Positions 59,001 to 62,000 of a stretch of 64,000 nt of DNA are shown here, one piece after another. The stretch is from IMG/VR virus record IMGVR_UViG_2630968933_000007, positions 53,025 through 117,024 of that record; one strand, 5' to 3'. The position numbers are program-made. Within the stretch, counting starts at the first letter, position 1. The number at the start of each line of letters is the position of its first letter. Source of the DNA: a virus. Its lineage: Duplodnaviria > Heunggongvirae > Uroviricota > Caudoviricetes.

Positions 59001-62000
59001 CAAGCGCAGAATCCTCAAAAACGGCTGCCGCATCGTCAGCCAGTTCGGCGGCGTCATCGGCATCATCGGCGTCTGCTTCAAAAGATGAGGCGACCAGACA
59101 GGCGTCAGCAGCGAGAGGTAGTGCCACGACAGCAACAACGAAAGCATCAGAGGCGGCAGGCAGTGCGACGGCTGCATCTCAGAGCAAAGTTGCTGCTGAA
59201 TCCGCGGCAACGCGCGCCGAGACAGCAGCAAAACGGGCAGAGGATATTGCATCCGCCGTGGCGCTTGAGGATGCGAGCACGACGAAAAAGGGGATGCTTC
59301 AAAAGGTCGGGTAACCGCGCTGACAGACAATACGCAGGGGGCAGCAGGTCTTGAGTTATACGAGGTGTATAACAACGGATATCCAACAGCGTATGGAAAT
59401 ATCATTCACCTGAAAGGGATGACAGCCGTTGGCGAAGGTGAGTTACTCATCGGCTGGAGTGGTACAAGCGGTGCTCATGCTCCGGCATTTATTCGTTCAC
59501 GACGGGATACGACCGACGCAAACTGGTCGCCGTGGGCGCAGCTTTACACCTCGGCTCATCCTCCTGCAGAGTTTTATCCAGTCGGTGCACCAATCCCGTG
59601 GCCATCAGATACCGTTCCGTCTGGTTATGCCCTGATGCAGGGGCAGACTTTTGACAAATCTGCATACCCGAAACTTGCAGTTGCTTATCCGTCAGGCGTG
59701 ATCCCTGATATGCGTGGCTGGACGATTAAGGGCAAGCCCGCCAGTGGTCGGGCCGTATTATCTCAGGAACAGGACGGCATTAAATCGCACACCCACAGCG
59801 CCAGCGCATCCAGTACGGATTTGGGGACGAAAACCACATCGTCGTTTGATTACGGAACCAAATCCACGAATAACACCGGGGCGCATACCCATAGTATTAG
59901 CGGGACCGCAAATAGTGCCGGTGCGCACCAACACAAGAGTTCCGGTGCATTTGGTGGCACGAACACGAGCATTTTCCCTAATGGTTATACCGCGATTTCA
60001 AATCTAAGCGCGGGGATTATGAGCACAACAAGCGGTAGTGGCCAGACTCGTAATGCAGGGAAGACATCATCAGATGGTGCTCATACCCACTCGCTGTCCG
60101 GCACTGCTGCAAGCGCAGGCGCGCATGCACATACTGTCGGTATTGGTGCTCATACGCACTCCGTTGCGATTGGTTCACATGGACACACCATCACCGTTAA
60201 CGCTGCGGGTAACGCGGAAAACACCGTCAAAAACATCGCATTTAACTATATTGTGAGGCTTGCATAATGGCATTCAGAATGAGTGAACAAGCACGGACCA
60301 TAAAAATTTATAATCTGCTGGCCGGAACTAATGAATTTATTGGTGAAGGTGACGCATATATTCCGCCTCATACAGGTCTGCCAGCAAACAGTACCGATAT
60401 TGCACCGCCAGATATTCCGGCTGGCTTCGTGGCTGTTTTCAACAGTGATGAGTCATCGTGGCATCTCGTTGAAGATCATCGGGGTAAAACGGTTTATGAC
60501 GTGGCTTCCGGCGACGCGTTATTTATTTCTGAACTCGGTCCGTTACCGGAAAATGTTACCTGGTTATCGCCGGAAGGGGAGTTTCAGAAGTGGAACGGCA
60601 CAGCCTGGGTGAAGGATACGGAAGCAGAAAAACTGTTCCGGATCCGGGAGGCGGAAGAAACAAAAAACAACCTGATGCAGGTAGCCAGTGAGCATATTGC
60701 GCCGCTTCAGGATGCTGCAGATCTGGAAATTGCAACGGAGGAAGAAATCTCGTTGCTGGAAGCATGGAAAAAGTATCGGGTATTGCTGAACCGTGTTGAT
60801 ACGTCAACTGCACAGGATATTGAATGGCCAGCACTGCCGTAGGGTAAAACATATAAATTCTATAATTAGATGTATCTTTCCATTTACGGCAAGGAAGGGG
60901 GCTTGGAAGACGTAAAGCATCTCACACCGAGATTATTTTTTATATGTCAGGTGTCTGAAGTTTTGCTTTGGCTCTTAAAATGGTTTGCCGCGAGGTTTTG
61001 AATTCCCGGGCAATGGCACTTATACTTACACCTGACTTAATTCGTTCGAATACCGCCTGTTTCTGTTCTTCATTTAACACAGGTGGTCGACCAAAACGTT
61101 TCCCTGCGCCGCGGGCTCTTACTATCCCGGAATGAGTGCGTTCAAGTAAAAGGTCTCGTTCAAATTCAGCGACTGCTGAAATTACTTGCATCATCATTTT
61201 TCCTGTTGGACTGGTCAGGTCAATGCCCCCCAATGCTAAGCAATGCACTCTGATACCTGTTTCGGTCAGTTGTTCCACTGTTTTCCTGATATCCATTGCA
61301 TTACAACCAAGGCGATCCAGTTTTGTCACAATCAATTGATCACCACATTTCAGGCGAGCAAGCAACCGGTTAAAACCAGGACGCTCACTGGTTGCTGCTG
61401 AGCCGCTAATGTGTTCTTCGATTATTTGCTGAGGTTTGATTTTAAAACCTGCACTTTCGATTTCCCGGCGTTGATTTTCGGTGGTCTGATCCAGCGTTGA
61501 TATCCGACAGTAAGCAAAAATTTGAGACATAGTGAGACTCTATACGAAATTGGTGTTCATATCATAATGCATCTCAGAAAATAATTATGATTATTTTTGT
61601 GCATATTTGTATGTACACGTTCGAAAATAAACGAATGCGTATGCAACCCCGTAATTTTGGTGAGACCCAAAATCGATTTTGTGAAAAATGGCTTTAACTC
61701 GGTTTGTTTTTCGAGTTCCGGGCGGACTCAAGGAAGAAGAATAGTGTTGCGTGTTATTTTAACCAGATTTCAAGTTGTTTGGTCGTGGAAAAGTGGAGCA
61801 AAATGTTGTTAAAGTGGAAAAATGATAAAAAAGTAAGTTTATTATATTACATTTTACCATTTAAATTTTGGTTGTCTTTAAGAACTGATATCGCTGTTTG
61901 TAATAATTCTTTGTTATCCAGCCATGATTTTTTCTTTATGTTTCCTTCAATGTAATCAAGCAATGTTCTGGTATTGATAGGTCTTCCCTGTTTTGCTACT

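Follow-up and report, generated by a model that had tools for sequence, protein, structure and literature searches.

The 64,000-nucleotide stretch of DNA analyzed here, referred to as the window (positions 53,025 to 117,024 of the Caudoviricetes record IMGVR_UViG_2630968933_000007 in IMG/VR), encodes a lambda-type side tail fibre gene, stf, which is split between two overlapping reading frames at the right end of a Qin-type lambdoid prophage. With considerable confidence, we interpret this gene as a pseudogene that originated from one illegitimate internal deletion of 700 bp. An earlier sequence-only reading had suggested that a one-base change in the AAAA/GGGG runs found where the frames overlap would fuse the two pieces, but these runs have their wild-type lengths and it is 700 bp of the gene that are missing. 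All coordinates are given in the numbering of the whole window.

The two frames themselves are exactly as they had been described. The N-terminal open reading frame (ORF) opens at GTG 57887, with a likely start at ATG 57893 (MAVKISGVLKDG...), and stops at TAA 59312-59314, whereas the C-terminal fibre frame is preceded by TGA 59266-59268, is open from 59269, and stops at 60265-60267. The two frames are offset by one position, and any of three changes within 59269-59311 could join them: the insertion of one base, the deletion of two, or a -1 slip of the ribosome. Their overlap holds an A5 run (59285-59289), a G4 run (59290-59293), and an A4GG run (59301-59306); in coding terms, the A5G4 and A4GG runs are plain codons for Thr-Lys-Lys-Gly and Ser-Lys-Gly, respectively. 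The parts of the split gene are as follows, with a slash marking the joint.

57893..59314, + strand: stf 5' remnant, 467 native codons followed by 6 out-of-frame codons (MLQKVG) and TAA
59269..59295, + strand: accidentally open stretch of the C-terminal frame, left of the junction and after TGA 59266-59268, not fibre-coding in the C-terminal frame
59295..59296, + strand: deletion junction GGGGAT/GCTTC, equivalent to 2496/3197 of the E. coli 88-3493 locus (L002), with codons ~468-701 of the 1024-residue intact Stf lost
59296..60267, + strand: stf 3' remnant, the last 323 Stf codons plus the stop, without a native start codon

The deletion becomes evident once the window is aligned to its closest intact relatives, E. 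coli 88-3493 (L002, 1024 residues), E. coli W (L008), and the viable phage mEp460_ev081 (L001, 1023 residues), all of which encode stf as a single coding sequence of 1023-1024 residues. On the left side, window 57800-59295 corresponds to L002 1001-2496 (96.7-96.8% identity to L001 and L002), while on the right side window 59296-60900 corresponds to L002 3197-4801 without a gap and with 99.75% identity. Between 59295 and 59296, the window lacks L002 2497-3196, which amounts to exactly 700 bp of the intact gene. Alignment to E. coli W yielded the same deletion, and in comparison to mEp460_ev081 about 701 bp are absent. At the left breakpoint, the intact gene reads ...ACGACGAAAAAGGGGAT followed by AGTACAGCTCAG..., and at the right breakpoint it reads ...GTTAATCTG followed by GCTTCAAAAGGTCGGGTAACC..., whereas in the window ...ACGACGAAAAAGGGGAT passes directly into GCTTCAAAAGGTCGGGTAACC.... 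The sequence at the joint is base-for-base identical to these intact flanks, including the A5G4 and A4GG runs, and the missing 700 bp constitute the sole difference from the intact genes at the split site. The loci of mEp460_ev081, PhiR68_2, E. coli W, and 88-3493, which encode intact Stf proteins, match the window to the left and right of the junction at 95-99% DNA identity and have the same neighboring genes. Unlike the window, each of them maintains a continuous ORF of 1023-1024 residues that includes two Phage_fiber_2 repeats and a ~190-residue central domain.

At the protein level, residue six of the first 'KKGIVQLSSATNS' fibre repeat is joined directly to the start of the C-terminal 323 residues, such that residues ~468-701 of 1024 are removed, comprising both Phage_fiber_2 repeats and the central region of ~190 residues. 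Because 700 equals 3 x 233 + 1, the frame shifts at the joint, which is followed by ATG CTT CAA AAG GTC GGG TAA, resulting in a ...KKGMLQKVG* tail that stops at 59312. A hypothetical one-base insertion would yield a frame of (1403 + 1 + 969)/3 = 791 codons, which is 233 residues short of the intact 1024. Since 700 bp are gone, no small change restores the fibre. The suggestion that a one-base change would fuse the two pieces into a single long fibre was therefore correct with respect to the joining of the frames, but not with respect to the recovery of a full fibre. Likewise, the comparison with intact prophage genes that the sequence-only reading had proposed as a check does support a lesion, just not one caused by the homopolymers.

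Both synteny and domain content identify the split gene as stf, in agreement with its original assignment. The order J - lom - stf - tfa is found in the window as well as in annotated relatives, and the full arrangement at the locus (J, lom, two stf pieces, tfa, a serine recombinase on the opposite strand, ydfK, and a truncated ydfJ) identifies it by sequence as a right prophage end, belonging to a lambdoid prophage inserted at the Qin site of E. coli. According to Pfam, residues 1-134 of the N-terminal ORF encode the PF08400 phage_tail_N domain typical of the stf N-terminus (E = 1.2e-71), the C-terminal frame encodes the PF07484 Collar and PF03335 Phage_fiber domains expected of an stf tip, and the gene after stf encodes a Caudo_TAP domain. 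The 467 native codons of the 5' remnant accordingly comprise the N-terminal tail-attachment domain and an Ala/Ser-rich shaft, while the 3' remnant comprises the Collar and a His-rich gp37-like receptor-binding tip. Phage_fiber_2 repeats (KGIVQLSSATNSTSE...), which would be located between the shaft and the distal part, were detected by Pfam in neither window ORF, as compared to two in the intact 1024-residue protein (one at residues 462-502, plus a second). The frame is not continuous from the N-terminal domain to the tip, and the presence of two frames places the gene in the stf family as a pseudogene, rather than as a functional member.

Several candidate routes to the deletion were considered and rejected. 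There is no microhomology (0 nt) at the joint GGGGAT/GCTTC, and both of the nearby AAAAGG motifs are retained, which argues against slipped mispairing or any other repeat-mediated event. An in-register join at the K-G codons would delete 714 nt and remain in frame, unlike the stf of the window. A serine invertase gene (pinQ) does adjoin tfa, as is characteristic of Pin/Gin/Cin segments, which would also be expected to carry inverted crossover sites within stf and past tfa. However, an invertase-mediated origin of the split was also rejected, as neither inverted repeats nor a crossover consensus were found at stf: no inverted repeats are shared between the junction region and the tfaQ-pinQ spacer, the Hin/Gin/Pin crossover consensus has no match within 57-62 kb (2 matches elsewhere in the window vs. 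3.08 expected by chance), and no invertible segment was found at pinQ/stf. One of the consensus matches lies 9-28 bp from the left breakpoint of the Qin prophage deletion in E. coli K-12, and that breakpoint is not at the center of the match.

Based upon this structure, several predictions can be made regarding the fate of the gene. A ribosome translating stf would exit the joint out of frame, read the six codons MLQKVG, and halt at 59312, presumably producing a 473-residue N-terminal stump devoid of the receptor-binding tip. The C-terminal 323 codons would have lost their translation start and could at best persist as a silent remnant. The A/G runs would flank the joint by chance and play no role in the lesion. 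We encountered no sequence evidence at odds with a deletion pseudogene. Two points do weigh against it: loss of stf function is inferred from the sequence, and between the draft assembly underlying the window and the finished genome of this strain there is a difference of 0.4%, with parts of the draft being unreliable. The result itself is of little weight. The gene is an ordinary pseudogene that arose by deletion within a cryptic prophage of the Qin type, and RefSeq already annotates it as a pseudogene in the finished genome of the same strain. The more general lesson is that overlapping ORFs at homopolymer runs should be compared with intact homologs before slippage is invoked.

Contig JPKH01000024.1 of GCA_000768405.1, a 2015 Illumina/Velvet draft of the probiotic Symbioflor-2 strain G1/2 (DSM 16441; draft described in PMC4358396), matches the window exactly. 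When 5,426 complete E. coli genomes were searched with a 200-bp query centered on the joint, a one-piece match across the joint was obtained from only three, the Symbioflor-2 strains G1/2, G6/7, and G8, in which both stf halves are annotated as incomplete pseudogenes by PGAP (NCBI). A 36-mer spanning the junction had no match among GTDB species representative genomes, metagenome contigs, or IMG/VR. The lesion would appear to have a single origin in the lineage of these three strains. A putative second deletion allele, suggested by a 766-bp span in 30 genomes, was rejected, as it corresponds to an intact gene of 983 residues containing one Phage_fiber_2 repeat instead of two. The intact left-flank 25-mer, which includes A5G4, occurs in at least 120 IMG/VR contigs, and the frame passing through this site extends for 792-1440 codons in 75 of the 84 IMG/VR loci that are bounded on both sides. 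A single-ORF stf is the norm among relatives. The two-ORF layout in intact relatives, which the sequence-only reading had named as the observation that would speak against it, was not encountered, since viable relatives have a single ORF.

The overlap of two frames just one position apart is also what would be expected if a single-base indel in A5, G4, or A4 had split an otherwise complete stf, which a one-base reversion could then restore. Laboratory lambda PaPa provides a precedent for this, as it carries such a lesion (C4 to C3 at ~20833) roughly 35 codons further on in the homologous protein (PMC12617516). In the present case, however, a point lesion is refuted by the alignments: run lengths equal those of intact alleles, no single-nucleotide indel accounts for the split, and a one-base insertion would create 791 codons still lacking 233 residues, including both Phage_fiber_2 repeats. 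We consider this origin highly improbable. Equally little credence can be given to a recoding or phase switch, in which a -1 frameshift at G_AAA_AAG (59284-59290), or else transcriptional or replicative slippage, would create a shortened fused fibre in some cells or transcripts. The site does contain a zero-frame A_AAG, which of all tetramers is the most prone to shifting in E. coli (PMC4066793), with GAGGA located ~12 nt upstream, and a -1 shift would enter the C-terminal frame. Yet the zero frame is ACG AAA AAG GGG and the first base of the heptamer is a G, which does not conform to X_XXZ_ZZN, while the 80 nt downstream (59291-59370) fold at -17.7 kcal/mol vs. a shuffle mean of -17.7 (z = 0.00). 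Tetramers lacking a stimulator support only ~0.147% -1 frameshifting in E. coli vs. a background of 0.112%, and values as high as 5.6% require a strong pseudoknot (PMC4066793). The motif is also native to the intact genes, where a -1 shift stops after six codons, and it was therefore not shaped by selection for recoding. The two-frame layout is similarly not conserved, being limited to one lineage (3 of 5,426 genomes), whereas viral relatives have a single ORF. With a length of 4-5 nt, homopolymer runs are generally too short to allow transcriptional slippage or phase variation to any appreciable extent. A phase-variable tract would be expected to span ~7 nt or more and to be polymorphic in length between isolates, whereas these are A5, G4, and A4 and no run-length polymorphism was seen among intact alleles or the viral contigs with the left-flank 25-mer. 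Furthermore, the tail gene U of this prophage is broken, which would leave no tail to bear a fibre. With short invariant runs, no downstream structure, and nothing beyond an A_AAG tetramer, the slippage-controlled switch that had been floated as an alternative to a lesion finds no support, and the lesion is accounted for by the 700-bp deletion seen in comparison to intact relatives.

Certainly, a 700-bp gap could also be the product of a collapse or mis-join by a short-read Velvet draft within a repetitive gene having paralogs, especially since the window is identical to a draft contig that departs elsewhere from the finished genome (in H, J, and 59116-59206). This is nonetheless very unlikely, as the same junction is present without gaps in CP060083, CP060061, and CP060057, three chromosomes that were finished separately, and the joint together with the 89 bp on its left is identical between the draft and finished G1/2. 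In addition, the breakpoints are out of register with the 132-bp Phage_fiber_2 repeat, meaning that a repeat collapse cannot yield the deletion. It is hardly conceivable that the two pieces are instead functional genes, one encoding an N-terminal anchor/shaft protein and the other a separately translated C-terminal receptor-binding protein. A gene caller did place a 282-residue gene at 59419..60267, and K-12 retains a 320-residue stfQ along with tfaQ. However, the predicted start ATG 59419 lacks a Shine-Dalgarno sequence at proper spacing (AAAGGG is immediately adjacent to the ATG), the C-terminal fragment has no attachment domain, and all viable relatives encode a single ORF, with the split layout limited to one lineage in which the pieces are annotated as pseudogenes.

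A parallel with the split stf of laboratory lambda had also been drawn, and it holds for the consequence, but not for the mechanism. Laboratory lambda lacks side fibres owing to a frameshift (PMC12617516). When the lambda PaPa sequence (J02459) is compared with a lambda record that has an uninterrupted 774-residue stf (KT232076), a single gap is found, C4 to C3 at ~20833 (AAAAGCCCCACTGG to AAAAGCCCACTGG), in line with the remark 'missing C relative to Ur-lambda' in the annotation of HK630. As in the window, the orf-401/orf-314 pair of lambda PaPa derives from the same gene within the same J-lom-stf-tfa synteny and is divided between different frames, with the N-terminal ORF encoding the shaft and the C-terminal ORF the receptor-binding part. 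In both, the break occurs just past the Ala/Ser-rich shaft near a KGIVQLSSATNS motif, and side-fibre loss is the expected outcome. The lambda PaPa lesion is ~35 codons downstream of the KGIVQLSS motif, making the two lesions neighbors in protein architecture. Unlike lambda PaPa, in which one C was lost and one base restores the gene, the stf of the window lost 233 codons plus 1 nt, and its intact parent is also longer (1024 residues vs. 774 in Ur-lambda).

Another known system for comparison is the cryptic prophage Qin of K-12 (stfQ-tfaQ-pinQ-ydfK, in ydfJ), which shares the chromosomal insertion site, the right end, and a truncated stf with the window. The segments shared by the window and K-12 MG1655, including both prophage and chromosomal flanks, are 99.35-100% identical, with five of six segments at or above 99.88%. 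In K-12 Qin, however, a 20.4-kb deletion joins nohA (window 38948) to window 59312, which eliminated the head and tail genes along with the 5' part of stf, whereas the prophage of the window kept its whole late operon and lost only 700 bp of stf. The right end of the latter deletion is located 16 bp to the left of the K-12 Qin breakpoint. The window thus illustrates the state of K-12 Qin prior to its 20-kb deletion. Window 16672-62000 constitutes a fuller Qin, with an intact 431-residue integrase and a full head/tail operon; the K-12 intQ is a pseudogene beside IS2E. The window segments 17831-20016 and 22627-27429 are absent from K-12 Qin.

To the right of the junction, five independent events end within window 59296-59368, a span of ~73 bp.

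59296: the 700-bp stf deletion described here
38948 joined to 59312: the K-12 Qin 20.4-kb deletion
GGGTAAC/CGCG, the same spot as in K-12: the LD39-1-type deletion
GAGTTA/TAC (~59357): the GPEC87 deletion, and likewise a second deletion in LD39-1
59365-59368: IS3 insertion in strain 6409 and others, ten genomes listed

We think it unlikely that 59296-59368 is a rearrangement-prone stf boundary at which the tip and tfa cassette is repeatedly cut loose. The query that revealed the LD39-1 and GPEC87 events was centered on this spot, and the clustering is therefore partly by construction. Were the boundary real, it would point to either a local mechanism or selection for keeping the tip and its chaperone, which might then act as a donor cassette for superinfecting phages.

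The remaining features of note around stf and in the tail region of the window are the following.

57229..57828, + strand: lom, upstream of stf; intact in the window, Ail_Lom domain
60267..60842, + strand: tfaQ, tail fibre assembly chaperone; intact, PF02413 (E = 3.6e-43), annotated as tfaQ at the same locus in RefSeq
60940..61530, - strand: pinQ, Pin-type serine recombinase; intact, Resolvase and HTH_7 domains
46844..46848, + strand: T5 run in the tail-terminator gene U; T6 in intact relatives, resulting in a frameshift

For the rest of the prophage, the window was compared with finished G1/2 (chromosome L007) and with E. coli W (L008). The T6 to T5 frameshift of gene U is common to the window and finished G1/2, where PGAP calls U 'frameshifted', making it a real one-base homopolymer lesion and a second inactivating lesion within the same prophage. 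Both G1/2 assemblies contain the stf deletion as well as the U frameshift, and the prophage is predicted to be defective in its tail genes regardless of stf. The host prophage would be defective for a further reason in the finished genomes of G1/2, G6/7, and G8, in which lom, intact in the window, is interrupted by ISEc12 (IS21-family) at ~57509-57514, a site that the draft contig crosses without the IS. In the window, a perfect 25-bp tandem duplication (GAAATATACCGAAGAGGCGCAGAAG x2) at 49951-50001 breaks up H, the tape-measure gene, leaving the ORFs 48767..50134 and 50109..51353, and a 10-bp deletion at 54382 (CAGTGCTACC missing) splits the tail-tip gene J into 53755..54441 and 54402..57158. 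Both the H duplication and the J deletion are absent from finished G1/2 and E. coli W; they may be artefacts of the draft assembly and were not used as evidence for a defective prophage. Between the window and finished G1/2, 22 of the 31 mismatches over 57509-62900 are concentrated in a 91-bp patch (59116-59206) of the Ala/Ser-rich shaft, which is repetitive and has paralogs in the genome. This patch probably reflects either a chimeric short-read assembly or gene conversion from a paralogous stf.

At the opposite end, window 1-6305 has no K-12 match beyond a break in ynfG. The phage-like proteins encoded there include an LPD38 polyvalent-protein domain, a SocA/Panacea antitoxin domain, a PAPS reductase together with DUF3440, and an AntA/P22 antirepressor, and this segment is either a second mobile element or a mis-join of the draft beside ynfG.

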